The notes under the pieces were generated by a model. It saw nothing but the letters and a program-made list of their open reading frames with translations, ran no database searches and was not told the origin of the DNA. From the NCBI GenBank assembly GCA_028717685.1, contig JAQUNI010000001.1, positions 54,306-118,305 of the forward strand: a stretch of DNA of 64,000 bases. The letters are read 5' to 3'. The position numbers were made by a program, and so were the translations under genes. Shown piece by piece: positions 18,177 through 64,000 of this stretch. This DNA is from Patescibacteria group bacterium. GTDB taxonomy: Bacteria > Patescibacteriota > JAQUNI01. The stretch's first letter is position 1, and each line of letters begins with the position of its first letter.

Positions 18177-18181
18177 TACTT

Positions 18182-19933
18182 ATGAAATGGCTCACTAAAT
18201 TTGCTCCTCCTCTTCTGATCACTATAATAGTTTTGGTTTCCTTTTTTTCGGTCCAAAAAGATTCCGCGATTATGGATGAGGTCGCCCATATCCCTGCTGG
18301 CTATTCCTACCTGAAATTTGGAGACTACCGCTTAAATCCCGAGCATCCCCCTTTAGCGAAAATGCTGTCCGCTCTTCCTCTCCTTTTCTTGCACCTCCAA
18401 TTCCCCTTAAACCATCCCACTTGGACAACCGACGTGAATGGTCAATGGGAAGCGGGATATCAGTTTTTATACCACCTTGGCAATGACGCGGATCAAATAC
18501 TCTTTTGGTCGCGCCTGCCGATTATCGCTCTTTTAATCTTGCTGGGGATCTATGTCTGGAAATGGGCAAAAGAGCTCCTGGGGGCAAAATGGGCGCTGGC
18601 GGTTCTGTTTTTGTATGCTTTCTCTCCCACGATTATTGCCCATAGCCACTATGTGACCACTGATTTAGCCGCAACATGTTTTATCTTTATCGCCTTTTAT
18701 TATTTTGTTCATTATTTAAAAAAACCGAGCCTTAAGAATACTCTTTTGGCTGGTCTTGCTCTGGGCTTAGCCGAGGTCGCTAAATTTTCGGCGGTTCTTC
18801 TTTTCCCGTGTTTTGTTCTCCTTGCCCTTATTCCCCTCCTTTTAAACAGGTCTCCCCAAACTTCTTGGCTCAAGCAAACAAAAAACCATATCGGCAAATT
18901 TATCCTCATTTGTTTGATCGCGCTCGGAGTAATCCTTATTGTCTATCAACCCGCGGTCTGGGCTTTCAATTTAGAAAAACAACAAGAATTAATCCGCGGT
19001 TCTATCGGACCGGAAAAAATTGAAAATATTGTGCTCGCTATAAGTAAAATCCCAGGAGCGCAAGGTTTTGCCCAATATATCTTGGGCGTTGTGATGGTCT
19101 TTGCCCGCGTGGGAGGCGGCAACACCAATTACTTCTTGGGTCAGGTTTCTAATCAAGGGTGGTGGTATTATTTCCCAACCTGTTTTTTTCTAAAAGAAAC
19201 AATTTCGGTCTTAATCTTAACAGGATTAGCTTTGCTTTTTGTGATTCGCAAATTTGTCATCAATCTCGTAAAAGACCGTCCGCGCAAATGGCTTCCTTGG
19301 TTTAGGGAATACGCGCTTTGTCATCTGGCGGAAATCTCAATGGTAGTTTTTATCATTGTTTATGGGGTAGTCAGCATGAGAGGCAAACTGAACTTAGGCG
19401 TCCGCCACATTATGGTCCTTTTCCCCTTTATCTATATTTTAATCATTAAAGAATTCAAACGGCGTATAGCAGAAACTGCCTATAAAAAACTTTTCACAGG
19501 AATATTGATTGTTCTCCTTGTTTGGGTTGGCGTGGAAGTCACGATAAATTATCCTTCGTACCTTGCTTATTATAACGAGCTTGGTGGCGGTCCGAAGAAT
19601 GGCTATAAATTGATCACAGATTCCAATCTGGACTGGGGGCAGGATTTAAGACGTATGGCGGAATGGGTGAACGCCAATCCTGAAATCTCAAAAATTAAAG
19701 TAGATTATTTTGGCGGCGGAGTGCCCTCTTATTATCTTGGCGATAAATATCAAGAATGGCATTCGCAAAATGGACCAACAACGGGTTGGATTGCTGTCAG
19801 CGCAAATTATTTTTCTGAAAGTATTTATCGCAAAGATTCCACCTTTGCCACCTCTTACTATTATCTAGAATTAAAAAAGCCCGAAAAAATCTTCGGGCAT
19901 TCCATATTTGTGTATTATATACCGGAGGAATAA
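18182..19933 (+). CDS. GT39-family phospholipid-carrier-dependent glycosyltransferase
   Basis: 583 aa, multi-TM. DEVAHIPAGYSYL ... NPEHPPLAKML is typical of the PMT_2 / GT39 family. Confidence 0.75.
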   Translation: MKWLTKFAPPLLITIIVLVSFFSVQKDSAIMDEVAHIPAGYSYLKFGDYRLNPEHPPLAKMLSALPLLFLHLQFPLNHPTWTTDVNGQWEAGYQFLYHLGNDADQILFWSRLPIIALLILLGIYVWKWAKELLGAKWALAVLFLYAFSPTIIAHSHYVTTDLAATCFIFIAFYYFVHYLKKPSLKNTLLAGLALGLAEVAKFSAVLLFPCFVLLALIPLLLNRSPQTSWLKQTKNHIGKFILICLIALGVILIVYQPAVWAFNLEKQQELIRGSIGPEKIENIVLAISKIPGAQGFAQYILGVVMVFARVGGGNTNYFLGQVSNQGWWYYFPTCFFLKETISVLILTGLALLFVIRKFVINLVKDRPRKWLPWFREYALCHLAEISMVVFIIVYGVVSMRGKLNLGVRHIMVLFPFIYILIIKEFKRRIAETAYKKLFTGILIVLLVWVGVEVTINYPSYLAYYNELGGGPKNGYKLITDSNLDWGQDLRRMAEWVNANPEISKIKVDYFGGGVPSYYLGDKYQEWHSQNGPTTGWIAVSANYFSESIYRKDSTFATSYYYLELKKPEKIFGHSIFVYYIPEE

Positions 19934-20085
19934 ATTTCTAATTTTCAATTTCTAATTTCTATTAAATTTTTAATTTTAAAATTTTCAAACACCATTAGAA
20001 ATGAAAAATTTCTAGACGGGATAAACCTTTTAAAAATTAATTCATTAGAAATTTAATAAAAATTGAAAATTAGAAATTGAAAATT
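19932..20085. repeat. heptamer-array hairpin element, copy 2 (direct repeat of 18065-18176)
   Basis: It has the same arms as copy 1. Its loop carries about 50 extra nt, including a degenerate ttagaaat...atttctag palindrome (19991-20020). Confidence 0.75.
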
Positions 20086-21136
20086 ACTTATAATACACCA
20101 ATCCCTGCACCCTTAAATCAATATAGTATTTAATTTCTTTATTATTTTTCCCAATATCCTCTTTGAAAACTAAGGTTAAAGCTTCAAGTTGGTTTTGCAA
20201 GCTCTGTCTAGTGTCAAAAAATATTTGATAACCTTTGTCCGTTTTTATATACAAGTCGCGGGAATCAGAAATCGGCACAATGAATTCTTGGATTTTCAAA
20301 TCCGTCTTTAGAGATAACAAATCCCGCACTTGAAAAAGGAAACTTAAAAAAGAGGGGTCTAAAATCTGCTCGCGCGGTTCTACTTTTTTAAAAGACTGAT
20401 CATAAAGAACGGGTAATCCCTTTTCCCATACCGTTTCCTCGGGAATTTCCTCGCCGATTATTCCTTCCGCATCTAAAAAGTGATAAAGAATAGTGGGATT
20501 TTCGGGATAGGAGGTTGGAGTCAAGATGGCTTGTGACTCTTTATCTTTAACTTCCCCGATTTCCTCCCTACTCGTAGAATCACTGGCAAAAGCTTCAGGG
20601 GGTAAAAATAAATCCTGCGGCGCGCCATTTGCCCAAATCGCTTTCGGCTCCCTCTCGGTAATGATAATTTTTAAAACATCGGGGAATTCTTTTTTAATGT
20701 CTATTTTCTCAATCTGGGCAAAATGGGCATAGATTACGCTGCTTAAATGCTTTTTACCCGCAATAATCAAATTTTCTTTGGGAAAAATAAAGGCGCGTCC
20801 CTTTAAATTCTCGCGCGCCAAATTTTCCACATCTTCACCCTTGACATTAACATTGCCTACCACTACAATCTCCTTGATTTGCCAGAACGGAAAAAAGAAT
20901 AAAAAATAAACAAGCGAACCTAACGCAAGCAAAAAAAGGAAAAAGGCAATTTTCCGCTGCAAATGTCCCGAAGCCTCGCGGACGCGAAAACGAGGAGTCG
21001 CGAGATAAATCCTCGGGCTCGCTAAGGTCCGCTTTTTCCTAAAAAACCCGCGTTTCCACTCCACTTTCCTTTTGCGGGATTTTTGTTTATACGGGTTTAA
21101 GTATAATTTTTTGCGGCTGGGTTTATGAGAAAACAC
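20084..21136 (-). CDS. FtsQ/DivIB-like cell division protein (POTRA domain)
   Basis: 350 aa with a basic N-tail, a single TM, then the POTRA-like WQIKEIVVVGNVNV...LKIIITEREPKAIW. The ORF-track start is GTG. Confidence 0.65.
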   Translation of the reverse strand: MFSHKPSRKKLYLNPYKQKSRKRKVEWKRGFFRKKRTLASPRIYLATPRFRVREASGHLQRKIAFFLFLLALGSLVYFLFFFPFWQIKEIVVVGNVNVKGEDVENLARENLKGRAFIFPKENLIIAGKKHLSSVIYAHFAQIEKIDIKKEFPDVLKIIITEREPKAIWANGAPQDLFLPPEAFASDSTSREEIGEVKDKESQAILTPTSYPENPTILYHFLDAEGIIGEEIPEETVWEKGLPVLYDQSFKKVEPREQILDPSFLSFLFQVRDLLSLKTDLKIQEFIVPISDSRDLYIKTDKGYQIFFDTRQSLQNQLEALTLVFKEDIGKNNKEIKYYIDLRVQGLVYYK

Positions 21137-22492: not shown

Positions 22493-22639
22493 TAGACCCT
22501 TCTCCGCCTCCCGCTTCCCAAGGGGAGAGGAGTTATTATCCCCTCCTTTCCAAGGAGGGGCTAGGGGAGGTTCTGAGTCAGAACCCCACCCATCCTCCCC
22601 TTGGAAAGGGGAGGTGGGGGGAGAAAGGAAGGGGTCTTT
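22493..22639. repeat. C-tract/G-tract nested-hairpin element
   Basis: It is bounded by tagacccttc ... gaaggggtct. Internal stems are cccctcc/ggagggg, ggttctga g tcagaacc (22569-22585) and cctcccc/ggggagg. It abuts the serS stop codon. Confidence 0.7.
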
Positions 22640-26134: not shown

Positions 26135-26209
26135 CTATTCTCCCTCCCCCTCCGCCTCCCCCTCGGGCAGGGGGAGTGTAATCAAGCTCCTCGTTAATAG
26201 ATGACATAT
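26135..26209. repeat. C-tract/G-tract hairpin repeat, copy B (see 5890-5964)
   Basis: About 88% identical by eye to 5890-5964 over 75 nt. It lies in the region upstream of lysS, on the opposite strand relative to the gene. Confidence 0.8.
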
Positions 26210-31410: not shown

Positions 31411-31414
31411 AAAA

Positions 31415-31519
31415 AAGCGTAAAGTGAAAAGTGTAAAGCGTAAAGTGTAAAAAATAATAACCCAGTATTTTAAGTTGCACGCTGTTCATTTTATGCTTTA
31501 CGCTTTAAGTTTTAAGCTT
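31415..31519. repeat. heptamer-array hairpin (gtaaagc/gtaaagt words)
   Basis: 31433-31452 gtaaagcgtaaagtgtaaaa pairs with 31489-31508 ttttatgctttacgctttaa at 17/20 positions. The loop is 36 nt. It lies between the mreB stop and the mreC start. Confidence 0.7.
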
Positions 31520-32559
31520 TATTTATACTGCGTGTCCACCAACACCTCGCGCAAGAGGTCTAAATTTTCTAAGACCATGCCCGCGCCCCGAACAACACAA
31601 GTCAAGGGATCATTGGCGATCTGGACGGGCATCTGCGTCTCGCGTGCGACAAGACGGTCAAGACCGCGCAGGAGCGCGCCTCCGCCCGCCAAAATAATAC
31701 CCCGATCCATAATATCCGCGACAAGTTCAGGAGGGGTTTCCTCAATCGTTCCTTTAATATTAGAAACTAGATTTCTGATGGAACGCGATAAGGCTTCGCG
31801 CACCTGACTATCATTAATAATCACCTCCTTTGGCAGACCCGTGACGAGGTCCCGACCGCGCAACTTTGCTTCCAAGGGTTTCTTCAAAGGCCAAGCCGAG
31901 CCAATGGCGATTTTAATTTCTTCGGCTTTCCTTTCGCCGATTAATAAATTAAAGTGGTCGCGGGAATATTGAATAACATTCTCGTTTAATTCATCTCCCG
32001 CAATCCGCAACGATCGCGCCACCACGCCCCCGCCCAGAGAAATTACCGCCATCTCGGTTGTGCCGCCGCCGATATCCACAATCATACTTCCCGAAGCATC
32101 TTGCACGGGAAGGCGGGAACCGATGGCCGCGGCCATCGGTTCTTCAATCAAGAAAGCTTGCCTCGCGCCAGCCGTGCGCGTGGCATCCTCCACCGCTCGC
32201 CGCTCCACTTCGGTGCAGCCCGAAGGAATGCCAATCACTACCCTAGGTCGCGGAATAAGAGTGAACATTCCTTGGTGCACCTTCTGAATAAAATATTTTA
32301 ACATCTGCTCGGTCACTTCAAAATCAGAAATCACCCCGTCCACAAGTGGACGAGTGGCTACAATATGCATCGGCGTTCTTCCCACCATCTTTTTCGCTTC
32401 ATTGCCAATTGCCAAAACCTGACCCGTCTTCGTATTCATAGCCACGACCGAAGGCTCATTGATGACGATGCCTTTCCCACGCACATACACTAAGGTATTC
32501 GCTGTCCCTAAATCAATGCCGATGTCGCGGGAAAAAGCGCCTAAAAAACGATTAAACAT
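31519..32559 (-). CDS. mreB: rod shape-determining protein MreB
   Basis: 346 aa. GIDLGTANTLVYV, DIGGGTTE and GGGALLRGLD. Confidence 0.95.
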   Translation of the reverse strand: MFNRFLGAFSRDIGIDLGTANTLVYVRGKGIVINEPSVVAMNTKTGQVLAIGNEAKKMVGRTPMHIVATRPLVDGVISDFEVTEQMLKYFIQKVHQGMFTLIPRPRVVIGIPSGCTEVERRAVEDATRTAGARQAFLIEEPMAAAIGSRLPVQDASGSMIVDIGGGTTEMAVISLGGGVVARSLRIAGDELNENVIQYSRDHFNLLIGERKAEEIKIAIGSAWPLKKPLEAKLRGRDLVTGLPKEVIINDSQVREALSRSIRNLVSNIKGTIEETPPELVADIMDRGIILAGGGALLRGLDRLVARETQMPVQIANDPLTCVVRGAGMVLENLDLLREVLVDTQYK

Positions 32560-32562
32560 AAT

Positions 32563-32696
32563 TTGGAATTAGGAATAGAGAATAATGAATAAGGAATAAG
32601 GAATTCTGAAAGTTACGCAATTCCTAAAAAAGGAGTAAGCAGAAATCTAAGGCAAACGCTTAACTCCTGCTTCCTAATTCCTGATTCCTGATTCCC
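32563..32696. repeat. heptamer-array hairpin (ggaatta/ggaataa versus attcctg/attccta)
   Basis: 32587-32605 gaataaggaataaggaatt pairs with 32676-32694 at 17/19 positions. The central core of about 50 nt (32626-32678) is about 80% similar to 27836-27890. Confidence 0.65.
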
Positions 32697-46994: not shown

Positions 46995-46999
46995 AAATT

Positions 47000-47097
47000 C
47001 GGAATTAGGAATAGGGAATTATGAATCATGAATCAGAAATTAGGAAGCGAGGAAAAAAGCTGTTCATCTTTATTCCTGATTCCTGATTCCCACTTCC
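47000..47097. repeat. heptamer-array hairpin in the rpsK/rpsD spacer (ggaatta/gaatcat versus attcctg)
   Basis: The left purine-rich array and right array ctttattcctgattcctgattccc are imperfectly complementary, about 16/20. The core gaaaaaagctgttcatctttattcct is shared with 47598-47635. Confidence 0.65.
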
Positions 47098-47565: not shown

Positions 47566-47642
47566 TTGGAATTAGGAATTGTGAATCAGGAATTAGGAAA
47601 GAAGAAAAAAGGCTATTCATCTTTATTCCTTATTCAGATTTT
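47566..47642. repeat. heptamer-array hairpin in the rpsM/rpsK spacer
   Basis: ggaatta ggaattg tgaatca ggaatta ggaaag lies opposite ctttattccttattcag. The conserved core is as in 47051-47080. Confidence 0.6.
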
Positions 47643-48036: not shown

Positions 48037-48130
48037 GGAATTGTGAATTATGAATTATGAATTATGAAATTTGACAGCACATTCTTAATTTTAGATTTTC
48101 GCGATTCGTAATTCGTAATTCTAGATTCGG
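48037..48130. repeat. paired heptamer arrays in the rpmJ/rpsM spacer (tgaatta x3 versus gtaattc x2)
   Basis: 48037-48071 reads ggaattg tgaatta tgaatta tgaatta tgaaatt. 48101-48130 reads gcgattc gtaattc gtaattc tagattc. They are complementary except for one position per word. Confidence 0.6.
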
Positions 48131-48931: not shown

Positions 48932-50686
48932 TTAGGGAAGGGCGCTTAAAACTTGAACTTCTATCTTTTTCTCCAAGGCAGGAACCTTTCGAACCCAAAA
49001 TGGCCAAAGGCGAATATCTACCTGCCGTACCTCCGCAAGCGATTGCAGATATTTTTGAGCCGCTTCTTTGTTTAAATTGACAATCTTTTCCTTAACCTTC
49101 CCCTCGTCAATTTTCCAAAATACCTCCTTTTCTATATGCACCGTCATTAGGGCTTTTTTTTCATTTAAATCAACGCTCTCTAACTTATAACTTACCCCCT
49201 CTTCAGAAAGATTAAGGATATATTTATCGGTTCCCAAAAGACTACTTACCGCGCGCAAGGCCGCATCCCGAGCCTCTTCTTGGGAAAAAATGAGCGCCCT
49301 CATTTGAATTTTAACGACGGTCTCAAATGTATCCGCTTCCTCGTCAACCTTCTTACTGTGTTTCACTTCCGAAACCTCGCTAATAAGCGCCCCCTCGGAT
49401 AAGGTAAACCCAGCAGGGAGATTATTATTAATTTCTGCGCGGGCGCTAGACGTGAGACTCTCAGTAATCGCTTTTTGCGCTTCCTCTAAATCCTTTTGGG
49501 TTACTATTTCTATATCGCGCGAAATTCCACCGACGAATGGATTACTGCTCTTCGCATAAATCTTCTCTTGTTTAGCGGGCGAAAAGGCCACGATGTAAAA
49601 ATCCGATGGTCCGATATTGCCTTCGGGACCAGCCTGATCCGCTACCACGCCGACCTTCACGCTGCCCGGAATCACCTTGCCTTCGCCAGAAACTGACGCA
49701 GGAGGAATAGTCACCTGACTTTCTGTCCGAAATAAAATATTTTCTCGCGACATTAAACGAGTAGTGGGCACAAGGAGCTGACTCACGCCCAATTCATTAT
49801 AAAGGATGACCTCTCCCCGCGCTTTTTCTAAAACCTGTTTCTTTCCCGTAGGTTTAAAAATTCGCGTTTCCTGTTTTTCCAAAGTAATGATCCGCCCGCT
49901 AATGCCCTCTTTTGAATTATCCGTTGCAGGGACGTCAGCTTTCACGACAAGGCTCACGTTCTCGCTCAAAGGTTCACTCTTGGGCACAATCGTAACCGTT
50001 GCCTTTGGTAAAATCAAAAAAATAATCACTAAAATCAGAAAAAAGCTAAAGCCGATAAATCCTAAACCCACTTTTGCCGAAAGAGAGGAAAGCCTTGTTG
50101 TTTTTCGTTTAGATCTCTTCTTTATCCTCCCTCTGTATTCTCTTTCGGGAGAAGGGTCCGGCGGGCGGGAAGAATCAGATTCCACAGGCGACGACCTCCG
50201 CCTTGGATCGGCGAGACTAGTCTGCCCAGAGGAAGAATCTTGCCGTAAAGGGTAAAACTTATTGCTCTTGGCACGGCGAATAATATCAGACACAGAGACC
50301 GCGGCCACGCCATCAGGGGACAAAAATGGATTGGCGGCTCGCGGAGAAGATTGACGCCAATCTTCTCTTTGCGGGATTGGATTTCCCATCTTCGTCTCTT
50401 GCGGCTTTTCAATCTCCGTAGTCAAGACTGCTTGGTTGCCTACTTTTTCTCGGACTTCTAAGCCGGCGCGAGTAGCCAGATGCTTCCCCAGTTGATCGGC
50501 GGTAACAATAATAATCTTTCGGCCTAAAATGTCACCCTGGCTTTTTAAAAGCTTCAGATTGATGAAACTTTGCGAGAGGAGAGCCCTTTGAGGAATTACC
50601 AAAATAATCTCTCTATCGGTAATCTTCCGAATCCGATCAATTACGCTCGTAATCTCTTCATCAATATCAATGTAAATGGTTTTCAT
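48932..50686 (-). CDS. hypothetical bitopic membrane protein (structured N-domain, Pro/Ser/Arg-rich linker, TM, large C-terminal domain)
   Basis: The start is taken at the first ATG (MKTIYIDIDEEITSVIDRIR); the ORF track extends to a TTG at 50707. The TM is LGFIGFSFFLILVIIFLILP. No family recognised. Confidence 0.65.
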   Translation of the reverse strand: MKTIYIDIDEEITSVIDRIRKITDREIILVIPQRALLSQSFINLKLLKSQGDILGRKIIIVTADQLGKHLATRAGLEVREKVGNQAVLTTEIEKPQETKMGNPIPQREDWRQSSPRAANPFLSPDGVAAVSVSDIIRRAKSNKFYPLRQDSSSGQTSLADPRRRSSPVESDSSRPPDPSPEREYRGRIKKRSKRKTTRLSSLSAKVGLGFIGFSFFLILVIIFLILPKATVTIVPKSEPLSENVSLVVKADVPATDNSKEGISGRIITLEKQETRIFKPTGKKQVLEKARGEVILYNELGVSQLLVPTTRLMSRENILFRTESQVTIPPASVSGEGKVIPGSVKVGVVADQAGPEGNIGPSDFYIVAFSPAKQEKIYAKSSNPFVGGISRDIEIVTQKDLEEAQKAITESLTSSARAEINNNLPAGFTLSEGALISEVSEVKHSKKVDEEADTFETVVKIQMRALIFSQEEARDAALRAVSSLLGTDKYILNLSEEGVSYKLESVDLNEKKALMTVHIEKEVFWKIDEGKVKEKIVNLNKEAAQKYLQSLAEVRQVDIRLWPFWVRKVPALEKKIEVQVLSALP

Positions 50687-50736
50687 AATAATAAACTCAA
50701 AGCTCAAATGTCAAAACTCAAAACTACAGGTCAAAA
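50687..50736. repeat. tandem heptamer array (aaactca aagctca aatgtca aaactca aaactac aggtcaa)
   Basis: Period-7 array filling the spacer between ORF 50737-51096 and ORF 48932-50686. Confidence 0.65.
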
Positions 50737-55854: not shown

Positions 55855-56289
55855 TTACTTTACTTTGCGTGGCACCATGTCTTTTGGCTTATCCTTGATA
55901 TTTAAGAAATCCATAATACCTGATTTTATTCCCTCTAAAGTTTTGCTATTGTGCAGGCCAGCTTTCTCCGCCTGATTATAATCCAAGAATGATAATGCGC
56001 TTTCCCATTGCTCATTGTGGATATTTCCGATATTTTTCAAAGATAATTCCCCCCAAATGGCGTCAGAGGCATTCGTATTGCCTGGTTCACTAAACGATAG
56101 AGTGATTTCTCCCCTATTTTTGAGAGCAAAGTAGATTGGTCCACCCCCTTTTTTTAAAGAATTTCTTAAAAGGTCTTTATTCATAGCAGGCGGATCTATC
56201 CGGAAGGTATAACCTTTTTGCTCTTCGCTTTCAGGAGATAAATCTGGGTCCCCAGCTTCTTCAGGGTTAAATTTGATTTCTTCAGGCAT
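55855..56289 (-). CDS. hypothetical protein
   Basis: 144-aa ORF. An extended -10-like TGATATAAT lies upstream on the minus strand (about 56330-56340). No family recognised. Confidence 0.55.
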   Translation of the reverse strand: MPEEIKFNPEEAGDPDLSPESEEQKGYTFRIDPPAMNKDLLRNSLKKGGGPIYFALKNRGEITLSFSEPGNTNASDAIWGELSLKNIGNIHNEQWESALSFLDYNQAEKAGLHNSKTLEGIKSGIMDFLNIKDKPKDMVPRKVK

Positions 56290-56474: not shown

Positions 56475-56705
56475 TTATGCGCGCCGCAACTTTTTGGAGA
56501 AAATAAAGATAAAACACGAAGCATTCTGCTACTGGGGCGCGTGCGTTTCTGGATTTCTGCTCCCTTGTCTCTTATCAAATATTTTGGTAATATTAGAATG
56601 TGGCAGGCGGTAATGTTCATATATAAAGTATTCCGCAATTTAATATTGCTAATAAATTATAATAAACTCGGGCAAAATCAATATAAAAACGGATAAGGGG
56701 AAAAA

Positions 56706-56861
56706 TTGGCTTATCATAAGGGAAAATTAGCCCATCTTGTCGATGTTTCCAATAATACGGTTACTGACATTAAAGCAGGAAAACAAGGTAATCTCACTAT
56801 AAGAAACTCTAAAAAAATCGCCAAAGCCCTCGGTATATCTGTGGATAATTTTTTAATATAA
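56706..56861 (+). CDS. short XRE-type helix-turn-helix protein, possibly truncated
   Basis: A 51-codon frame opens at TTG (in-frame taa at 56694). (M)AYHKGKLAHLVDVSNNTVTDIKAGKQGNLTIRNSKKIAKALGISVDNFLI matches helices 2-5 of Cro/C1 HTH, but the first helix is missing. It is too short for the ORF track. Confidence 0.35.
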   Translation: MAYHKGKLAHLVDVSNNTVTDIKAGKQGNLTIRNSKKIAKALGISVDNFLI

Positions 56862-56870
56862 TACATTCAT

Positions 56871-57242
56871 ATGGCAACAACAAAGAAAAAAATTCTCATC
56901 ATAGAAGACGAAAAGCCAATGGCACGCGCGCTTGAACTTAAACTCACGCACGCGGGCTTTGAGGTGAAAGCGGTATTTAATGGCGAGGAGGGAATCAAAC
57001 TTCTCCAAGAAGAAACCTACGCGCTCATCCTTCTCGATTTGGTAATGCCCAATGTGGACGGATTTATGGTACTGGAGATCCTTAAAGAGAAAAAAATAAA
57101 AACTCCGGTCATGGTTCTTACTAATTTGAGTCAAGATAAGGATGAGGAGCGTACGAAAGCGCTCGGCGCAAAGGAGTTTTTTATTAAATCCAATACGACA
57201 ATTGCAACCATCGTTGAGAAGGTAATAAAACTTCTAGAATAA
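56871..57242 (+). CDS. stand-alone response regulator receiver domain
   Basis: 123 aa. KKILIIEDE, phospho-acceptor context LILLDLVMPNVDG, and a conserved T (VLTN) and K (FIKS). Confidence 0.9.
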   Translation: MATTKKKILIIEDEKPMARALELKLTHAGFEVKAVFNGEEGIKLLQEETYALILLDLVMPNVDGFMVLEILKEKKIKTPVMVLTNLSQDKDEERTKALGAKEFFIKSNTTIATIVEKVIKLLE

Positions 57243-57312
57243 CTATTTTCTTGTGAACCCCGCTAGAGTTATTTTTATGGTTAAAACGGGGAAAAAAATA
57301 AAAATATAAAAT

Positions 57313-59061
57313 ATGAAGGACAAATTAAAAAACGATACAGTCAATTCCAACGGGGTGAAATTTGACGACAAAACAATAAAGAAGATTCTCTTAAAAGGGA
57401 ACTATATTACTGAAGAAGATGTTAAGAACGCGGATGATTTTGCCACAACGCACCAAGTGTCATTCATAGGGTATCTGCTCCAAGAAAATCTCATCACCAA
57501 GGACCTCTTGGGGCAGGCGATTGCCGAATCGTTCAAGGTTCCCTACGCTGACTTAAATTCAGCACCACCCGCACCTCTGCAGGTGCAAAAAATTCCGGAG
57601 GAGACCGCGAAAAAATATCACGCGGTTATTTTCGCTGAAGAAAAAAACAAAACCGTAGTCGCCACCGATAATCCAGAAGATCCAACACTCCTGCCGGAAT
57701 TAGAAAAGCTGTTTGTCGGCAGGAGGTTGAGCATTGTCTATTCGCTGACCGAGGACATCAACGCGAGCTTTGTGCATTATCAAAAGCCGCTTGAAACCCG
57801 CTTCTCTAAGATTATTGAGAGCAAAGGGCGAGTCGCGCCAGAGCTTTTGGAAGAAATTTTTGATGACGCGCTCGTATATCATGCCTCCGACATCCATTTT
57901 GAACCCAGGCAGAAAGATGTGCTTGTGCGGTTTCGCATTGACGGCGTTTTACAAGAAACCGGCAGGATCCCCAAAGAATATTACGAAAATATTCTTAATC
58001 GCATCAAGGTGCAAAGCGGTTTGCGCATTGATGAACACTTTGCCGCGCAAGACGGTTCGCTCCGGTATGAACCCTCCTCCTTTAAAGCTTCCTCCTACGC
58101 TAACGCTCCAGCGGGCAAAAAGGATAGCGTTGTTGTTGACCTTAGAACCTCAGTTGTCCCCACTGTTGAAGGAGAAAAAGTGGCATTGCGCGTACTCTCG
58201 GCATATGTGCAAGGATTTTCTCTTGGTGATCTTGGTCTTTCGCCGGCACATCAGCAGATACTTGAGCAAGCCGCCACAAAACCATTTGGCATGATTCTCG
58301 TAGCAGGTCCCACTGGTTCCGGAAAAACCACTACGCTTTACGCACTTTTGAAACTTGTAAATAGCCCAGAGGTGAACATCACCACTATTGAGGACCCGGT
58401 GGAGTACAGGGTGCTCGGCGTGAATCAAATTCAAATCAATCCTCTAACAAATCTCACTTTTGCCAAAGGACTGCGTTCTATCGTCCGCCAAGACCCGGAT
58501 ATTATTCTGGTCGGCGAGATTCGCGACGAAGAAACAGCAGAAATCGCCGTAAATGCGGCACTCACCGGCCATCTTCTCTACTCCACATTTCACGCCAACG
58601 ATGCCGCTACCGCCATTCCTCGGCTTCTGGATATGGGCATTGAACCGTTTCTTTTGGCTTCCACGCTTGAGGTTATTGTCGCCCAGCGACTCGTGCGTAA
58701 AATTTGCGAACATTGCCGGCATAGTGTTACCAAATCGGCAAATGATTGGAAGACGCCTCAGCTTCGGTCAGTTATGCCATATCTTTCCAAAAAGTCGATC
58801 ACGCTCTATGAAGGGAAGAAGTGCGAGATGTGCGGCTATACGGGGTACAAAGGACGAACTGCTATTTTTGAATTCATCCAAATCACTCCGGAGATGCGGA
58901 ATCTCATCTTACACTCCCCGTCAACTAAAGAAATCTGGCAACTCGCCAGTAAGGATGGTTCAAAAACACTTTTTGAAGACGGCATTGAAAAAGTTAAGAC
59001 TGGAGTAACCACAATAGAAGAGCTGCTTCGCGTCGCCGAACCGCCGCAGAAGAGTGGGTAG
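57313..59061 (+). CDS. pilB: type IV pilus assembly ATPase (GspE/PilB family)
   Basis: 582 aa. Walker A GPTGSGKTT, Walker B DPDIILVGEIRD, His box TGHLLYSTFH, and a tetracysteine CEHC...CEMC. Confidence 0.9.
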   Translation: MKDKLKNDTVNSNGVKFDDKTIKKILLKGNYITEEDVKNADDFATTHQVSFIGYLLQENLITKDLLGQAIAESFKVPYADLNSAPPAPLQVQKIPEETAKKYHAVIFAEEKNKTVVATDNPEDPTLLPELEKLFVGRRLSIVYSLTEDINASFVHYQKPLETRFSKIIESKGRVAPELLEEIFDDALVYHASDIHFEPRQKDVLVRFRIDGVLQETGRIPKEYYENILNRIKVQSGLRIDEHFAAQDGSLRYEPSSFKASSYANAPAGKKDSVVVDLRTSVVPTVEGEKVALRVLSAYVQGFSLGDLGLSPAHQQILEQAATKPFGMILVAGPTGSGKTTTLYALLKLVNSPEVNITTIEDPVEYRVLGVNQIQINPLTNLTFAKGLRSIVRQDPDIILVGEIRDEETAEIAVNAALTGHLLYSTFHANDAATAIPRLLDMGIEPFLLASTLEVIVAQRLVRKICEHCRHSVTKSANDWKTPQLRSVMPYLSKKSITLYEGKKCEMCGYTGYKGRTAIFEFIQITPEMRNLILHSPSTKEIWQLASKDGSKTLFEDGIEKVKTGVTTIEELLRVAEPPQKSG

Positions 59062-59498
59062 TAGGATTAGTTGGTAGTTTGTAGTGAGTAGTTAGTAGTA
59101 AATATGAAAATTGAATCGTACGAAAATTTAATTGTGTGGCAAAAGTCAATGGATCTGGTGATTGCTGTTTATGCATTGACAGAAAAATTTCCAAAAGAAG
59201 AACTATACGGTTTAACTTCACAAATGCGCCGCGCAACTGTTTCAGTTCCTTCCAATATTGCGGAAGGTAGTAGGCGTGGTTCTCGAAAAAATTTTAGAAA
59301 TTTTTTACTCAATGCGTATGGTTCCAGTGCAGAGCTTGGGACTCAGATCAAAATCGCGAAACGGCTTTCATACGGAAAAACCAAAAATTATGAGCAAGCG
59401 GATGCACTGCTTGATGAAGTAATGCGCATGTTAGACAAATTGACGTATGGGCTCAAAGAATAAAAGTCTACAAACTACCAACTACAAACTACAAACTA
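59059..59498 (+). mobile_element. hairpin-loop four-helix-bundle cassette (IVS-like), copy 2
   Basis: 59068-59084 tagttggtagtttgtag is the exact reverse complement of 59468-59484 ctacaaactaccaacta (17 bp). ORF 59104-59463 fills the loop. Confidence 0.65.
59104..59463 (+). CDS. four-helix-bundle protein (23S rRNA intervening-sequence protein / Avd-like family)
   Basis: 119 aa. YENLIVWQKSMDL, FPKEELYGLTSQMRRATVSVPSNIAEG. It differs from ORF 61765-62124 at 10 of 119 residues. Confidence 0.9.
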   Translation: MKIESYENLIVWQKSMDLVIAVYALTEKFPKEELYGLTSQMRRATVSVPSNIAEGSRRGSRKNFRNFLLNAYGSSAELGTQIKIAKRLSYGKTKNYEQADALLDEVMRMLDKLTYGLKE

Positions 59499-60886
59499 TC
59501 TTCCTAGGCAAAGAACGGGACTATTTTATTGAGAATTTAAGCATGCTGGTCGCCGCTGGCATGCCGATTTTGGGCGTTCTCGACTCCATTGCCAAAGAAC
59601 TGCGCTCGCGCCGCATGAAAAAAATTCTTGCTCTTATTCGGGAATATATTGAATCTGGCTCGCCAATTTGGAAAGCGCTTCAAACAACTAACCTGTTTGC
59701 CGACCACACTATCTCGCTTATCCGCCTTGGCGAAGAATCGGGAAAGCTTACGGAGAACTTAAAAGTGGTCGCGAATGAACAAGAAAAAAATCGGGTGTTC
59801 CACTCCAAGCTTCGTTCCGCCATAATGTATCCTGTATTCGTACTCTCACTCACGGTCATTATCGGTGTGGGCATTGCGTGGTTTATTTTGCCCAAGCTGG
59901 CGCTGGTGTTTGCCCAGCTTAAAATAACCTTGCCCCTTATCACAAAAATTTTGATCGGATCGGGAACATTTCTTGGCGAATATGGCCAATACGTCGTGCC
60001 CGCGGCAGTTATAGCAATATCAGTTATTTTTTTCTTTATTTTCTCATTTCCAAAAACAAAATTTATCGGGCAATTTATTTTATTTTCTTTGCCCGGCGTT
60101 AAACAACTTATTAAGGAAGTGGAGCTGGCGCGGCTCGGTTATCTTTTAGGCACGCTTCTTGACGCTGGACTGCCGGTAACCCAAGCGCTCAACTCGCTCG
60201 CAAGCGCTACCGAGATTGCGCCATACAAAAAACTCTACAAACACCTGCGCGACTCGGTAGAAGACGGCAATCCGTTCCGGAAAAGCTTTATTTCCTTTAA
60301 GCGCACTAATCATCTTATTCCCGAACCTATTCAGCAACTCATCGTCGCTGGTGAACAGTCAGGCACTCTTTCAGCAACTCTTCTTAAAATCGGAGAGACT
60401 TATGAAGCTAAAGCGGACACGACGACAAAAAATTTGACCGTGATTCTGGAGCCGATATTACTCGTCATCGTGTGGCTCGGCGTTGTAGCCGTGGCGTTAG
60501 CAGTGATTTTGCCAATCTACAGCCTTATCGGCGGATTTAACGCCAACCAGCCCGCAGCGGCACAGCCTCCTCCTGCCGAAGAACAGGTAATCAGTCCGCC
60601 GCCAAGTGTGGAAACAACAGCTCCAGATACAGAAACCGTGGAAGTAATACCCCCTCCGGATACAGAAATCATAGAGAAAAAACCAACAACGCTCCGCGTT
60701 CTTCCCACTAGCGTAGGGTATCTTAACGTGCGCGAGAAACCATCATTAACAAGTAAAATCGTCACGCGCGTTAAGCCGGGTGAAACATTTGAATACACTG
60801 AAAAAAACGAGAGCTGGTATAAAATTATTTTGCCGGATGGCAATTCCGGATGGGTGTTTGAAAAATATGTTGAAGAAAATGAATAA
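59447..60886 (+). CDS. pilC: type IV pilus platform protein (GspF/PilC family) with C-terminal Pro-rich linker and SH3b-like domain
   Basis: 479 aa. Two T2SSF-type repeats (FIENLSMLVAAGMPILGVL and LGYLLGTLLDAGLPVTQAL) and three TM helices. The C-terminal YLNVREKPS...SWYKIILPDGNSGWVFEKYV is SH3_3-like. The ATG lies 17 nt inside the preceding ORF. Confidence 0.85.
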   Translation: MGSKNKSLQTTNYKLQTIFLGKERDYFIENLSMLVAAGMPILGVLDSIAKELRSRRMKKILALIREYIESGSPIWKALQTTNLFADHTISLIRLGEESGKLTENLKVVANEQEKNRVFHSKLRSAIMYPVFVLSLTVIIGVGIAWFILPKLALVFAQLKITLPLITKILIGSGTFLGEYGQYVVPAAVIAISVIFFFIFSFPKTKFIGQFILFSLPGVKQLIKEVELARLGYLLGTLLDAGLPVTQALNSLASATEIAPYKKLYKHLRDSVEDGNPFRKSFISFKRTNHLIPEPIQQLIVAGEQSGTLSATLLKIGETYEAKADTTTKNLTVILEPILLVIVWLGVVAVALAVILPIYSLIGGFNANQPAAAQPPPAEEQVISPPPSVETTAPDTETVEVIPPPDTEIIEKKPTTLRVLPTSVGYLNVREKPSLTSKIVTRVKPGETFEYTEKNESWYKIILPDGNSGWVFEKYVEENE

Positions 60887-60892
60887 ACAAAA

Positions 60893-60998
60893 CTAACAAA
60901 TGACACATAACATCTGACACATGACATTTGACACATATGAAACAAAAAAAATTATAGGAAAATAAAAGGGCATCGTCAGATGTTAGGTATCAGATGTT
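60893..60998. repeat. heptamer-array hairpin (ctgacac/atgacat words)
   Basis: The left array is ctaacaa atgacac ataacat ctgacac atgacat ttgacac. 60909-60932 pairs with 60975-60998 at about 19/24 positions. Confidence 0.65.
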
Positions 60999-61013
60999 CC
61001 AAAAGGGTTTACC

Positions 61014-61309
61014 CAGCACCACTTTTTAGATTATAAACATGTATTACGTCTATACCTTAATTAGTAAGTTAAAAAATAAGACAGAAATATATATTGGATC
61101 AACAAATGATCTGAGAAGAAGACTAAGAGATCATAATAATGGTAAAGAAAGATCTACAAAACGTTATAGGACGTGGAATCTGATTTACTACGAAGCATAT
61201 ATAACAGAGAGTCTAGCAAGATTAAGAGAAAAACGATTGAAACATCACGGAAATGCGATGAAAGAATTAAAAAAAAGAATCGGATTATCCGAATGGAAAA
61301 GTGGTGCTG
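61014..61309 (+). mobile_element. GIY-YIG nuclease-carrying element with 13-bp terminal inverted repeats and 8-9-bp flanking direct repeat
   Basis: 61014-61026 cagcaccactttt is the exact reverse complement of 61297-61309 aaaagtggtgctg. ggtttacc lies immediately outside both ends (61006-61013 and 61310-61317). Confidence 0.6.
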
Positions 61310-61731
61310 GGTTTACCTTGCTGGAAGTTCTTCTCTCTATCGCGGCGATCGCGATTATCGCCGTAATTTCTATTCCCATTTATCAGTCGTTTCAGGTGCG
61401 AAACGATCTTGATATCGCGACCATGGAAATTGCCCAAACTTTGCGGCGCGCGCAAGTACTTTCCCAAGCGGTTGATGGCGACACAAGCTGGGGCGTTTCT
61501 CTCGCAAGCGGAAATATCACGCTTTTTAAGGGCGTAAGTTACGCCACCCGCGATACCAATTTTGATGAAGTGTTTGATGTATCAACAAATATCACTCCAT
61601 CGGGACCTTCCGAAATCGTGTTTGTAAAATTTACAGGCTTACCACAGACCACGGGGACAATAATGCTATCCTCCAATATGAATGAAACGAGAAATATAGT
61701 AATTAACCAGAAGGGAATGGTTAATTATTAG
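61039..61731 (+). CDS. GIY-YIG nuclease domain fused in frame to a type IV pseudopilin (GspH/FimT-like)
   Basis: 230 aa with no internal stop. Residues 1-85 read YYVYTL..IYIGSTNDLRRRLRDHNNG..YYEAY..REKRLK (GIY-YIG). Then comes KSGAG|FTLLEVLLSIAAIAIIAV (class III signal with E5). An internal Met74 lies at 61258. Confidence 0.8.
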   Translation: MYYVYTLISKLKNKTEIYIGSTNDLRRRLRDHNNGKERSTKRYRTWNLIYYEAYITESLARLREKRLKHHGNAMKELKKRIGLSEWKSGAGFTLLEVLLSIAAIAIIAVISIPIYQSFQVRNDLDIATMEIAQTLRRAQVLSQAVDGDTSWGVSLASGNITLFKGVSYATRDTNFDEVFDVSTNITPSGPSEIVFVKFTGLPQTTGTIMLSSNMNETRNIVINQKGMVNY

Positions 61732-62158
61732 TTGGTAGTTTGTAGTGGGTAGTTGGTAGTAAATATGAAAATTGAATCATACGAAAATTTAATTGTGTGG
61801 CAAAAGTCAATGGATTTAGTGATTGCTGTTTATGCATTGACAGGAAAATTTCCAAAAGCAGAACTATACGGTTTAACTTCACAAATGCGCCGCGCGGCTG
61901 TTTCAATTCCTTCCAATATCGCGGAGGGGAGCAGGCGCGGTTCTCGGAAGGATTTTAGAAATTTTTTACTCAATGCGTATGGTTCTGGTGCAGAGCTTGA
62001 AACTCAAGTTAAAATTGCGAAACGACTTTCATACGGAAAAACCAAAGATTATGAGCAGGCGGACGCGCTGCTCGATGAAGTAATGCGCATGTTAAACAAA
62101 TTGACGTATGGGCTCAAAGAATAAAAATCTACCCACTACAAACTACAAACTACCCACT
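61729..62158 (+). mobile_element. hairpin-loop four-helix-bundle cassette (IVS-like), copy 3
   Basis: 61735-61752 gtagtttgtagtgggtag is the exact reverse complement of 62129-62146 ctacccactacaaactac (18 bp). ORF 61765-62124 fills the loop. Confidence 0.65.
61765..62124 (+). CDS. four-helix-bundle protein (23S rRNA intervening-sequence protein / Avd-like family)
   Basis: The start is taken at the ATG homologous to 59104 (MKIESYENL). The ORF track begins at a TTG (61753) inside the hairpin arm. Confidence 0.9.
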   Translation: MKIESYENLIVWQKSMDLVIAVYALTGKFPKAELYGLTSQMRRAAVSIPSNIAEGSRRGSRKDFRNFLLNAYGSGAELETQVKIAKRLSYGKTKDYEQADALLDEVMRMLNKLTYGLKE

Positions 62159-62746
62159 CAACAAGGCTTCAGCCTTGTTGAAGTTATTCTCGCCAGCGCG
62201 GTGTTTGTTTTGTTCGTTACCGCGCTTGTCGGAGCGTACCTCTATGGGCAGGAGTCAACCGCGCTTGCCGGCAATCGCGCGCGCGCGACGATTCTTGCCG
62301 AAGAAGGGCTTGAGGCAGTGCGCAATATCCGCGATGCCGGATTTTCTAATCTCACCGACGGCACCTACGGATTGGCTGTTGTCGGCAACCAATGGGCGTT
62401 ATTCGGAACATCAGACACAACGGGTATTTTTACCCGCCAAATTACAATTTCCGCTGTAGATTCAGAACGAAAAAGCGTGACTGCGAATGTCGCTTGGCAA
62501 CAAAATGCCCAGCGCCCGGGAGCAGTTGCCCTGACGACCTATCTTACTAACTGGAAAAAGGCGACTCCTGTCAATTCCTGCGATATTTACTGCCAGTTGT
62601 TGGGAACCTATACCACTGGTACCTGTCGGGAAAATTCCCAACAATGTACTAAGTATGACGAGATTTATGAGGCGGGCGGTGATCCTATTTGTGTGACTAG
62701 TTTTCCTGGCGACGCCAGCCATGATACTTGTTGCTGCAAACCATAA
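62108..62746 (+). CDS. type IV pseudopilin with cysteine-rich C-terminal domain
   Basis: MGSKNKNLPTTNYKLPTQQG|FSLVEVILASAVFVLFV is a class III signal with E5. There are 8 Cys in the last 57 residues. The ATG lies 17 nt inside the preceding ORF. Confidence 0.75.
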   Translation: MGSKNKNLPTTNYKLPTQQGFSLVEVILASAVFVLFVTALVGAYLYGQESTALAGNRARATILAEEGLEAVRNIRDAGFSNLTDGTYGLAVVGNQWALFGTSDTTGIFTRQITISAVDSERKSVTANVAWQQNAQRPGAVALTTYLTNWKKATPVNSCDIYCQLLGTYTTGTCRENSQQCTKYDEIYEAGGDPICVTSFPGDASHDTCCCKP

Positions 62747-62755
62747 TTTAGGGAT

Positions 62756-62814
62756 TAGTTTGTAGTGAGTAGTTGGTAGGTTGTAGTTTTCTACTCACTA
62801 CTCACTACAAACTA
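62756..62814. repeat. unoccupied heptamer hairpin between pseudopilin genes
   Basis: 62756-62772 tagtttgtagtgagtag is the exact reverse complement of 62798-62814 ctactcactacaaacta (17 bp). The 25-nt loop contains a small gtag tttt ctac stem. Confidence 0.8.
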
Positions 62815-62823
62815 CAAACTAAC

Positions 62824-63348
62824 ATGCTACCAACTACAAACTACCAACTACAAACCCAGCGTGGCTTCACGCTAATTGAACTGCTTCTCTATGTTGCCGT
62901 TGCGTCGGCGATACTTTTGGCGATTTCGGTTTTTCTTTCAATCCTCCTTCAGTCGCGCATCAAAAATCAAACTATCGCTGAAGTGGAACAGCAGGGGCTT
63001 CAAGTTATGCAACTCGTTACGCAAACCGCGCGCAACGCCGAGGCAATCACCTCGCCAGCGCAGGGCGCAAGCGCTTCATCTTTGACGCTTGACGTTATTT
63101 CTGCTGCCAGTGACCCCACTATTTTTGATCTCGCAAGCGGCGCGATTCGCGTCAAAGAAGGGGCTGGTTCAGCTACCGCTCTTACTAATTCTCGCGTTAC
63201 CGCTTCCGCTCTCACATTCCAAAATCTCTCTCGCACCGACACTCCGGGCACGGTTCGCGTCCAATTCACCCTCGCACATACAAATCCAGAAGGCAGAAAT
63301 GAATACTCATTTACTAAAACATTTATCGGCTCTGCGAGCCTGCGCTAG
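62824..63348 (+). CDS. type IV pseudopilin (GspJ/PulJ-like)
   Basis: The start is taken at the ATG giving MLPTTNYQLQTQRG|FTLIELLLYVAVASAILL. The ORF track begins at a TTG (62773) inside the hairpin. Confidence 0.75.
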   Translation: MLPTTNYQLQTQRGFTLIELLLYVAVASAILLAISVFLSILLQSRIKNQTIAEVEQQGLQVMQLVTQTARNAEAITSPAQGASASSLTLDVISAASDPTIFDLASGAIRVKEGAGSATALTNSRVTASALTFQNLSRTDTPGTVRVQFTLAHTNPEGRNEYSFTKTFIGSASLR

Positions 63349-63370
63349 TCATAATGCGGCAAATGCCGCA

Positions 63371-63477
63371 ACGACTGACACTTGATACCTAGCACCTGAC
63401 AACTGACCACTAACATCTAACATTTTGTTAGGTGTCAGATGCCAAATGTCAGGTGTTAGGTGCTAGGTGTCAAGTGT
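63371..63477. repeat. long heptamer-array hairpin (ctgacac ttgatac ctagcac ctgacaa ctgacca ctaacat)
   Basis: The outer stem 63376-63395 acacttgatacctagcacct pairs with 63458-63477 aggtgctaggtgtcaagtgt at 19/20. The inner arms are imperfect, with loop tttt near 63423-63426. Confidence 0.75.
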
Positions 63478-63507
63478 TAATTGTATAGAACCAGGTTATT
63501 CACACTC

Positions 63508-63927
63508 ATGATTATTTTAAAATATAAAAAGTGTTATAATAAACAGGAGGATGGGTTCATTACCCTAATAAGTGTCTTGGTGGTTGGAGCGGTTGGAATA
63601 GCCCTCACAATTTCCGTGATTTTGCTCGGGCTTGGGTCGTCGCGAACAAGTTTTACGAATGAGCAGTCAAACCAAGCGAAAGCCCTCACTAACGCCTGTG
63701 CCGAAGAAGCTCTTCAGCAAATTCGTGATTCTGTGAATTTTGAAGGTACCGGTAGCCTTACTTTAGGTCTGGGCAGCTGCACCTATACCGTGACCAAACT
63801 TGTTAGCCAGAACCGAACCGTCACCGCCAGCGGGACAGTGGGAACAATCATAAGAAAAGCAAGTATTGCTCTTGATACAATCAGACCGAGCATCAACATC
63901 ACTTCCTGGCAAGAGGTGGCTGATTAG
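63508..63927 (+). CDS. PilX/minor-pilin-like protein
   Basis: The start is taken at the first ATG, giving MIILKYKKCYNKQEDG|FITLISVLVVGAVGIALTISVILLG. It has a hydrophobic N-terminal helix but no Glu at +5. The ORF track begins at TTG 63481. Confidence 0.55.
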   Translation: MIILKYKKCYNKQEDGFITLISVLVVGAVGIALTISVILLGLGSSRTSFTNEQSNQAKALTNACAEEALQQIRDSVNFEGTGSLTLGLGSCTYTVTKLVSQNRTVTASGTVGTIIRKASIALDTIRPSINITSWQEVAD

Positions 63928-63989
63928 TTAGTAGTTTGTAGTGAGTAGTGAATAAAAAACTACCAACTAACACGCTACCAACTACAAGC
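63925..63989. repeat. heptamer arrays of the pilus-locus family at the window end
   Basis: tagttagtagtttgtagtgagtagtg is followed by actaccaactaacacgctaccaactacaagc. The words match 59059-62857 but complementarity is degenerate. The next gene lies beyond the window. Confidence 0.5.
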
Positions 63990-64000
63990 TAAATAAACAT

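Follow-up and report, generated by a model that had tools for sequence, protein, structure and literature searches.

Two kinds of bacterial repeat element resemble the arrays analysed here, which lie at gene boundaries of a type IV pilus operon in a Patescibacteria group bacterium (candidate phyla radiation). The operon is situated in a 64 kb stretch of contig JAQUNI010000001.1 (assembly GCA_028717685.1, positions 54,306 to 118,305 of the forward strand), hereafter called the window, and the arrays consist of a ctacNaa heptamer and its complement, NgtagtN. The first kind of element is the intervening sequence (IVS) of 23S rRNA genes. In Coxiella, this is 428-444 nt long, carries an S23p open reading frame (ORF) in the loop and is bounded by terminal repeats that form a 28-bp stem, which is cut by RNase III; such IVSs are regarded as selfish or possibly mobile, their function being unknown (PMC4990558). 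The second kind comprises the intergenic heptamers, namely the short tandemly repeated repetitive (STRR) sequences of cyanobacteria, GGGAATC in Xanthomonas, GGGGA(C/T)T in Nostoc and TAACTGA in Beggiatoaceae, Cyanobacteria and Bacteroidetes (PMC4679880, PMC4692102). These are often found a few nucleotides upstream of start codons where canonical ribosome-binding sites are scarce, again with unknown function, and in Xanthomonas there are 70-75 convergent heptamer pairs capable of forming stem-loops (PMC4679880, PMC4692102). A supplementary table of the Xanthomonas heptamer-repeat paper has the start of XCC0516 overlapped by a GGGAATC array, the protein family going unmentioned in the paper, and a survey of cas genes describes four-helix-bundle genes wedged between them. 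In the literature searched we found no paper linking heptamer repeats to four-helix-bundle (PF05635) genes or to pilin leaders, and the heptamer-repeat papers found do not describe translation of an array as a signal or leader peptide.

The ctacNaa/NgtagtN arrays are not a device specific to the pilus genes; they belong to a genome-wide class of intergenic repeats. The arrays of the operon are probably nucleic-acid-level repeat elements that have settled at its gene boundaries, rather than a pilin-specific regulator or a dedicated hairpin switch. An initial annotation of the same DNA had favoured the latter, proposing that each pilus gene has its initiation region and leader codons sequestered in a stem with the preceding spacer, as a built-in control of translation or RNA stability.

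Heptamer arrays and cassettes in the pilus operon

Tandem Repeats Finder (TRF) returned 89 rows for the window; 44 of these had a period of 7 and a further 17 a period of 14 or 21. Merging yielded 44 period-7 arrays in 64 kb, nearly all intergenic, and such arrays were present in 19 of the 49 gaps of at least 50 nt. The density of period-7 sequence was 23.6 bases per kb, as compared to 0-13 in relatives. The heptamer differs from site to site, each neighbourhood having its own unit, and the ctacNaa family is confined to 59-64 kb of the window, where it occupies five junctions within 5 kb. A search for CTACNAACTACNAACTAC with at most 2 mismatches gave 22 matches, all at 59067-63992, and none in shuffled sequence, which bears out the arrays reported in the initial annotation. 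Heptamer hairpins also separate ribosomal-protein genes and many others in the window, and arrays are found between convergent genes (19933-20084) and 3' of stop codons as well.

Within the operon, all of which is on the plus strand, two pairs of complementary arrays each enclose a gene. The first cassette follows pilB, the gene for the type IV pilus assembly ATPase (57313-59061; Pfam T2SSE, E 3e-114), the TAG stop codon of which is at the edge of the first 5' array. It consists of a 5' arm of tagtNNg heptamers (59066-59100; inverted repeat I19, 87% complementary to 59468-59498), a four-helix-bundle gene of the protein family of 23S rRNA IVSs (S23p) in the hairpin loop (59104-59463; PF05635, E 8e-39; TIGR02436, E 2e-36) and a 3' arm of ctacNaa heptamers (59465-59500). 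The second cassette has the same layout, with a 5' arm at 61726-61760 (I21, 87% complementary) that aligns with cassette 1 and provides the TAG stop codon of the pseudopilin gene pp1, a paralogous four-helix-bundle gene at 61765-62124 (PF05635, E 4e-40) and a 3' arm at 62126-62160. Aligned with each other, positions 59066-59497 and 61726-62158 are about 90% identical and end sharply, which delimits a unit of about 432 bp. The arms are 31 and 30 nt long and 369 nt apart, and their duplexes have z scores of -6.7 and -5.0. Both cassettes sit between protein genes, pilB/pilC and pp1/pp2, and not in rRNA; there was no rRNA match in the region.

The two four-helix-bundle ORFs differ at 31 nt, with a synonymous divergence (dS) of 0.33 and a ratio of nonsynonymous to synonymous divergence (dN/dS) of 0.11, indicating that both copies are maintained by purifying selection. 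The window proteins contain the family motif RxxxSxxxNxxE (RATVSVPSNIAE), and among solved structures the nearest is that of the Xanthomonas protein XCC0516, a pentamer (PDB 2GSC, E 7.5e-26). A third PF05635 gene, at 446-829 on the minus strand, is also flanked by complementary arms, built from a different heptamer of the gaattac type (region 364-873), and its 3' array ends 5 nt from a tRNA-Gln gene (364-436).

Directly 3' of the stop codon of pp2, the next pseudopilin gene, is a hairpin with a 5' arm at 62755-62789 and a proximal 3' arm at 62791-62823, which is untranslated and ends in ...aactaac before the ATG of pp3. This hairpin (62755-62822) is an ORF-less version of the cassette, two hairpins of the operon being ORF-less relatives of it. 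Over the 36 nt of the proximal arm and the ATG (62791-62826), the sequence is identical to the 3' terminus of an ORF-bearing four-helix-bundle cassette from a different metagenome (L020). A second, distal ctacNaa array (62827-62855) follows directly after the ATG; TRF resolves it as a near-perfect 14-mer repeated twice.

The initial annotation had the ctacNaa array as the 3' arm of every hairpin in the pilus locus, a generalisation that fails for two of them. The hairpin at about 60896-61001 is built from tgacaNN / NNtgtca-type heptamers (TRF 60896-60937; fold of -27.7 kcal/mol for 60887-61038) and the long hairpin at 63371-63484 from gacacct / aggtgtc (I6; -77.5 kcal/mol for 63349-63507); both are untranslated. 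The latter is followed by the pseudopilin gene pp4 (63508-63927), which has an ordinary leader, MIILKYKKCYNKQEDG/F, the slash here and below marking the prepilin cleavage site. A fourth hairpin of the ctacNaa family (63921-63992) has ACG where the third has ATG, and precedes a fifth pilin gene starting beyond the window.

Other hairpin-forming period-7 arrays are found, for example, at 11604-11740, 14042-14142, 18063-18178, 19932-20086, 31414-31521, 32560-32695, 46996-47090, 47568-47599 and 48038-48121. The window also contains repeats of another class, a G+C-rich palindrome (CCCCTCC... / ...GGGGAGG) at 22540-22614 and CCCTCC hexamer repeats at 5897-5919 and 26142-26164. An Rfam scan of 56500-64000 detected no known RNA family, only sub-threshold look-alikes of microRNA hairpins, and intrinsic terminators were dismissed as an identity for the heptamer hairpins after a terminator scan, the T-tail being missing.

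Translated arrays and prepilin leaders

The sequence (CTACAAA)n is stop-free in all three frames and encodes cyclic permutations of LQTTNYK, and the complementary array has stops in every frame (3/2/2 per frame for 59066-59100). A recurring leader peptide is thus an automatic outcome, since such permutations arise in any frame, and array-coded peptides such as GSKNKNLPTTNYK are expected if the arrays are translated. The translations agree with the initial annotation in placing the recurring peptide at three N-termini, those of PilC, pp2 and pp3. The pp2 gene (62108-62746) begins at an ATG in the tail of four-helix-bundle gene 2 and has a leader of 20 residues, most of which is encoded by the 3' arm of cassette 2 (NLPTTNYKLPT); the N-terminus reads MGSKNKNLPTTNYKLPTQQG/F and the cleavage site G/FSLVEV. 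The pp3 gene (62824-63348) has a leader of 14 residues (MLPTTNYQLQTQRG/F, with G/FTLIEL at the cleavage site), the array-coded part of which is LPTTNYQLQT. Both are short basic leaders with a unique in-frame ATG, and the prepilin signature of G(-1)/F(+1)...E(+5) followed by a hydrophobic helix is present, with N_methyl / TIGR02532 matches for pp1, pp2 and pp3. The earlier statement that the 3' hairpin arm encodes the leaders is therefore correct in that ctacNaa arrays lie in the PilC, pp2 and pp3 ORFs, but not for the perfect stem at 62756-62814, which is wholly upstream of ATG 62824, the pp3 leader being derived from the distal array.

PilC had been counted among the prepilin leaders, although it is not a prepilin. 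The pilC gene (59447-60886) has a T2SSF domain from residue 27 and would start at an ATG in the tail of four-helix-bundle gene 1, with an overlap of 17 nt; the N-terminus is then MGSKNKS-LQTTNYKLQT, with the array as codons 8-17. ATG 59447 is the sole canonical start and an in-frame ATC at 59498 the only alternative, and the start ATG of the pilC orthologue in the related locus L001 corresponds to CAA at the matching window position. Beyond a linker rich in Pro and Glu, PilC continues into a C-terminal extension that contains a bacterial SH3 domain (residues 425-476). With tblastn, this extension is aligned up to its end in L001, L003 and L007 (query residues 456-457 of 459), but the alignments with L004-L006 go no further than residue 345.

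For pp2 and pp3, there is no further in-frame ATG, GTG or TTG from the preceding stop codon to the G/F site, so that the arrays must be translated if these genes are expressed. ATG 62824 was also chosen as the pp3 start by an independent gene call and in an NCBI protein. It is very improbable that the arrays are untranslated, be it that starts have been mis-assigned or that the pilus genes are decaying pseudogenes. PilC could in principle use the ATC at the array end, the fifth pilin has no canonical start, and long ORF calls will always run through stop-free arrays. Yet the bodies of pp2 and pp3 are full-length and 65-75% identical to their orthologues with G/F...E motifs intact, there is no usual start codon between array and G/F, and the frame and the LQ[TA]-x-x-G/F spacing are kept across many genomes. 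Small perfect palindromes span the cleavage codons of both genes, TCAACAAGGC-TTCA-GCCTTGTTGA in pp2 (62158-62181) and a 6-bp stem in pp3 (62856-62875).

The fifth pilin is of the major type (G/FTLIEILLVVAAIAILAG) and was located at 1780-1958 of L009 (window 63957 to about 64135), an independent Logan contig that is exactly identical to the last 1823 nt of the window. Its leader codons are of the array type (LQTTNYKPQTHKG/F), and it lacks the short leader with a unique in-frame ATG: an in-frame ATG, GTG or TTG is missing, the roughly 125 nt upstream are devoid of ATG in all frames, and an ATA is all that is on offer. The L001 and L101 orthologues, for their part, have ordinary leaders that begin with ATG. 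Ribosomal bypassing and a polyprotein were considered as readings of this start-less gene and dropped, no supporting feature being present.

The order pilB-pilC-pp1-pp2-pp3-pp4 is kept in eight related loci. In L101, the host proteins are 69-78% identical to those of the window and the four-helix-bundle protein 79%, and the gene is placed between pp1 and pp2 as in the window, in one cassette only; the pilB/pilC junction has an ORF-less array pair. The L101 pp2 gene starts at the homologous ATG in the four-helix-bundle tail and has an array-coded leader, MNSMNKNLQTTHYKLQTSNG/F. Its pp3 leader is likewise array-coded (MLPTTNYNLKSYKLQANSG/F), with no complementary upstream arm (z -1.3). Leader words of the ctacNaa type were identified in 28 of 116 pp3 orthologues. 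Five loci with array-coded pp3 leaders were examined as DNA (L101, L105, L106, L107 and L108). L105 has the three-array layout of the window, with 5' arm, 3' arm, ATG and second array (z -4.8), whereas an upstream arm is absent from L106, L107 and L108 (z +1.5, +0.7 and -0.8), their leader arrays beginning 6-9 nt after an ATG that abuts the previous gene. The array-coded leader is thus widespread and the stem dispensable. Heptamer-encoded leaders, for which the initial annotation had suggested a search in relatives, were found in part of the orthologues and not in the distant loci L003-L008, where the genes are tightly packed or overlapping and have short basic leaders and no arrays.

A heptamer located in leader codons could also act by slippage, since 7 nt (7 mod 3 = 1) would shift pilus genes in and out of frame. 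The repeat unit is indeed not a multiple of three and lies between start codon and mature protein, the distal array at 62827-62855 is a near-perfect duplicated 14-mer, and the fifth pilin combines array-type leader codons with the lack of an in-frame start. We nevertheless hold phase variation to be a most unlikely explanation. Array lengths are identical in 10-14 independent assemblies (assemblies, not reads) of the L101 population despite up to 19 substitutions per kb elsewhere, the L009 contig does not deviate from the window, and the units are imperfect with only 3-4.5 copies. In comparisons within one population, of L013 and L015 with L010 and of L102 with L101, cassette and leader are identical and the pilin bodies diverge sharply from about 30 nt after G/F, which suggests that recombination breakpoints may be situated in the conserved N-terminal region.

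Leaders may also be replaced by entire domains. The pp1 ORF (61039-61731) has a GIY-YIG domain (aa 1-75) fused in frame to the pseudopilin, with G/F at aa 91/92. The insert is bounded by an inverted repeat, 60992-61026 / 61297-61331 (16-nt), with GGGTTTACC (codons G-F-T) on either side. In-frame GIY-YIG::pp1 fusions occur in six protein clusters (P0122-P0125, P0143 and P0173), three of which share 57-73% identity with the window protein across 93% or more of its length and one 48% across 99%, P0143 covering 79%. The fusions are mostly without an internal Met, and the NCBI name of the protein is only 'GIY-YIG nuclease family protein'. Similarly, an ORF at 7919-8908 of L001 is an in-frame fusion of a four-helix-bundle protein with pp2, without a stop codon ahead of pp2; this occupant of the pp1/pp2 boundary is 42% identical to that of the window and has other heptamer arms (gaatatg / caaaatt). 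A cytoplasmic N-terminal extension before the membrane helix is topologically compatible with the processing of class III signal peptides.

Cassettes outside the operon, folding and start sites

We also examined 80 metagenome loci (L021-L100) encoding PF05635 proteins that are 46-63% identical to those of the window. Their GC contents span 33-67%, indicating that they come from many lineages. Flanks were long enough in 70 of the 80 loci for the analysis of complementarity and in 69 for that of periodicity. Period-7 arrays were present on both sides of the ORF in 46 of the 69 loci and on at least one side in 61, and the periodicity of the flanks was far higher than that of control windows, with Mann-Whitney U test p values of 1e-32 and 1e-39. 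Flank complementarity had z < -3 in 44 of 70 loci. No prepilin gene was found downstream of the metagenome cassettes (0/61), the link between four-helix-bundle and pilin genes being specific to this clade.

Among 40 unrelated cassettes, the 3' array was never inside the next ORF, and array translation is therefore special to these pilus genes. In the window, clear cases of an array within the 5' end of an ORF were limited to PilC, pp2 and pp3 among the 44 merged arrays; of two further overlaps, the one at 48932-50707 resembles a TTG start that was mis-called and the one at 55855-56289 a coding repeat of 21 nt. Together with the tolerated domain fusions, these numbers are in line with the earlier suggestion that the leader is free to drift into a nucleic-acid-level repeat, and they support the view that cleaved prepilin leaders may freely be built from repeat DNA.

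The stem that gave rise to the proposal of a hairpin control is as originally described: 62756-62772 is the exact reverse complement of 62798-62814, a perfect 17-bp stem with a 25-nt loop. The fold of 62740-62875 has a minimum free energy (MFE) of -44.5 kcal/mol (z -5.6), in which the 5' arm at 62755-62789 pairs with the proximal 3' arm and the distal array is single-stranded. The distal array competes for the 5' arm only in alternative folds, the structure being bistable with the proximal partner in the MFE fold and the distal one in the centroid. The mean unpaired probability at the pp3 ATG was 0.52 with the 5' arm as compared to 0.83 and 0.97 when the arm was reversed or deleted. The corresponding values were 0.57, 0.52 and 0.51 for the pp2 ATG and 0.35, 0.48 and 0.23 for the pilC ATG. 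Hence, a modest drop in predicted accessibility with the upstream arm, as the initial annotation would have it, was obtained for pp3, where the occlusion is partial and confined to alternative folds, with no consistent change for pp2 and pilC, the ATGs of which are 21 nt upstream of the arm.

If the upstream arm pairs with leader codons and thereby sequesters the initiation region, it could serve as a translational or RNA-stability switch. The strength of the stems, with arm duplexes of about -38 kcal/mol, the bistable fold at pp3 and the recurrence of the three-array layout in L105 all speak in its favour, and start-site structure could matter in a genome where Shine-Dalgarno motifs are scarce. 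Several observations nonetheless make such a switch an unlikely explanation. The upstream arm is absent from four of the five orthologous loci with array-coded pp3 leaders (L101, L106, L107 and L108), the distant orthologues are array-free, and similar hairpins stand between ribosomal-protein and other genes. Orthologous pilin leaders lacking such an arm are also what the initial annotation itself had named as evidence against its proposal. Nor is there a folding advantage of the sense strand, neither for 18 hairpins of the window (-428 versus -463 kcal/mol for sense and antisense) nor for 54 metagenome cassettes (28 versus 26, p 0.31). Such symmetry is as expected of inverted repeats at the DNA level and gives no support for selection at the transcript level.

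The proximity of the arrays to start codons raises the question of a role in translation. Of the 26 arrays in the window that lie near a gene start, 17 have their end at -2 to +7 nt from the start codon. For the 3' array of the unrelated cassettes, the distance to the next start was -2 to +10 nt in 21 of 40, a figure that is biased to small values since it uses the nearest possible start. The arrays could accordingly offer the ribosome or S1 a G-poor and unstructured site to land on, usually located just upstream of the ATG; in the packed pilin genes they would sit downstream, in the disposable leader, with the complementary arm as an optional antagonist. This agrees with the distance of only 0-9 nt from ATG to leader array both in the window and in L105-L108, loci in which the ATG directly adjoins the gene before it, and with the same position of the TAACTGA heptamers in Beggiatoaceae (PMC4679880). 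A Shine-Dalgarno-like motif was present in none of 18 array-abutted genes versus 8 of 46 others, although this difference is not significant. Arrays also lie between convergent genes and after stop codons, however, and at the start of the four-helix-bundle gene itself the adjoining arm is the G/U-rich one and not a G-poor one. On balance we think it improbable that the arrays are start-site elements.

We favour instead the settlement of repeat elements. The elements are placed exactly at gene boundaries of the operon, with the 5' arm supplying or abutting the stop codon of the upstream gene. The downstream genes lack a start of their own, so that initiation has to take place at an ATG inside or next to the element, which is in the four-helix-bundle tail for pilC and pp2 and after '...aactaac' for pp3, and translation then runs on through the stop-free array. 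In the scenario we propose, heptamer elements, some as the arms of IVS-type cassettes and some ORF-less, would have spread into these junctions in the present lineage. The prepilins presumably tolerate the array leader in that it is cytoplasmic and removed at G/F by the prepilin peptidase, and PilC in that its N-terminus is cytoplasmic. Translation of pp2 and pilC is likely coupled to that of the four-helix-bundle ORF by the 17-nt overlap. The pilB/pilC cassette may have been installed by recombination between homologous arrays, such as the ORF-less array pair at this junction in L101. The stems would then be a property of the element, and any influence on pilus expression a side effect.

Some of the data weigh against this scenario. 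The start codons of the array-led genes are assigned by ORF logic. Mobility of the cassette would be deduced from one duplication and from the occupant of the same boundary in L001, and no target-site duplication was seen at the cassette ends. Between the window and L101, the conservation of the four-helix-bundle protein equals that of PilB (79% versus 78%), as would be expected of a useful gene no less than of a selfish one. Leader arrays need not come from cassette arms, judging from L106-L108 where no cassette is nearby, and the recurrence in L105 is possibly indicative of some selection on the three-array architecture. Finally, a motif scan of the window ORFs revealed no prepilin peptidase (PilD-like motif).

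Comparison with known systems

The excess of heptamer repeats and the role of the four-helix-bundle protein of IVSs are two old puzzles, which are perhaps one. As a tentative proposal, and one that may well prove wrong, PF05635 genes with complementary heptamer arrays could constitute a widespread and unrecognised class of hairpin-bounded cassettes, of which the 23S rRNA IVSs would be only the rRNA-resident members. Cassettes and their ORF-less derivatives might then explain much of the intergenic heptamer excess, with the pentameric protein recognising the arrays, the elements donating stop and start codons at gene boundaries, and prepilin leaders acting as safe harbours from which the translated element or domain is released by the peptidase. 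Should the stems be cleaved by RNase III, the mRNAs of the operon would also be cut by the cassettes at fixed positions. A prepilin leader can seemingly absorb much foreign sequence, from repeat arrays to whole domains. This has consequences for predicting the expression of the pili these organisms are thought to depend on, and for the calling of genes in the candidate phyla radiation, given that 'GIY-YIG nuclease' fusions and start codons located within an adjacent gene are easily misread.

A close counterpart is the 23S rRNA IVS of Coxiella burnetii and Leptospira, which shares with the window cassettes the unit of about 430 nt and the position of the PF05635 ORF in a loop that is closed by inverted repeats of about 28-31 bp at the termini. 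The cassettes differ in their location between protein genes of an operon instead of in helix 25/45 of 23S rRNA, in having arms that are tandem heptamer arrays, and in an ORF that is under purifying selection. Moreover, excision by RNase III would here cut the body of pilC or pp2 off from its ATG at 59447 or 62108. The window likewise has the over-representation, intergenic position, start proximity and convergent pairs of the known heptamer-repeat class. Those genomes have one or a few heptamers, whereas nearly every site in the window has its own.

The pseudopilins resemble other type IV prepilins with a class III signal peptide in their Gly at -1, Phe at +1 and Glu at +5, their hydrophobic helix and their basic leader of 14-20 residues. 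They depart from these in that the leader is set by a DNA repeat and not by selection at the peptide level, and in relatives it can be a whole folded domain. Phase variation by repeats in leader or signal-peptide codons is exemplified by CTCTT in the opa genes of Neisseria. The arrays are similar to such repeats in having a unit that is not a multiple of 3, placed after the start codon and ahead of the mature part of a surface-structure protein, but here the units are imperfect and no length polymorphism is seen in the sampled populations. Repetitive extragenic palindromic (REP) elements and MITEs (small transposable elements with inverted repeats) are comparable as short palindromic intergenic elements, some of them in apparently non-autonomous, ORF-less forms. 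The window elements, in contrast, have neither a target-site duplication nor a recognisable transposase, and a single heptamer family is clustered locally rather than dispersed.

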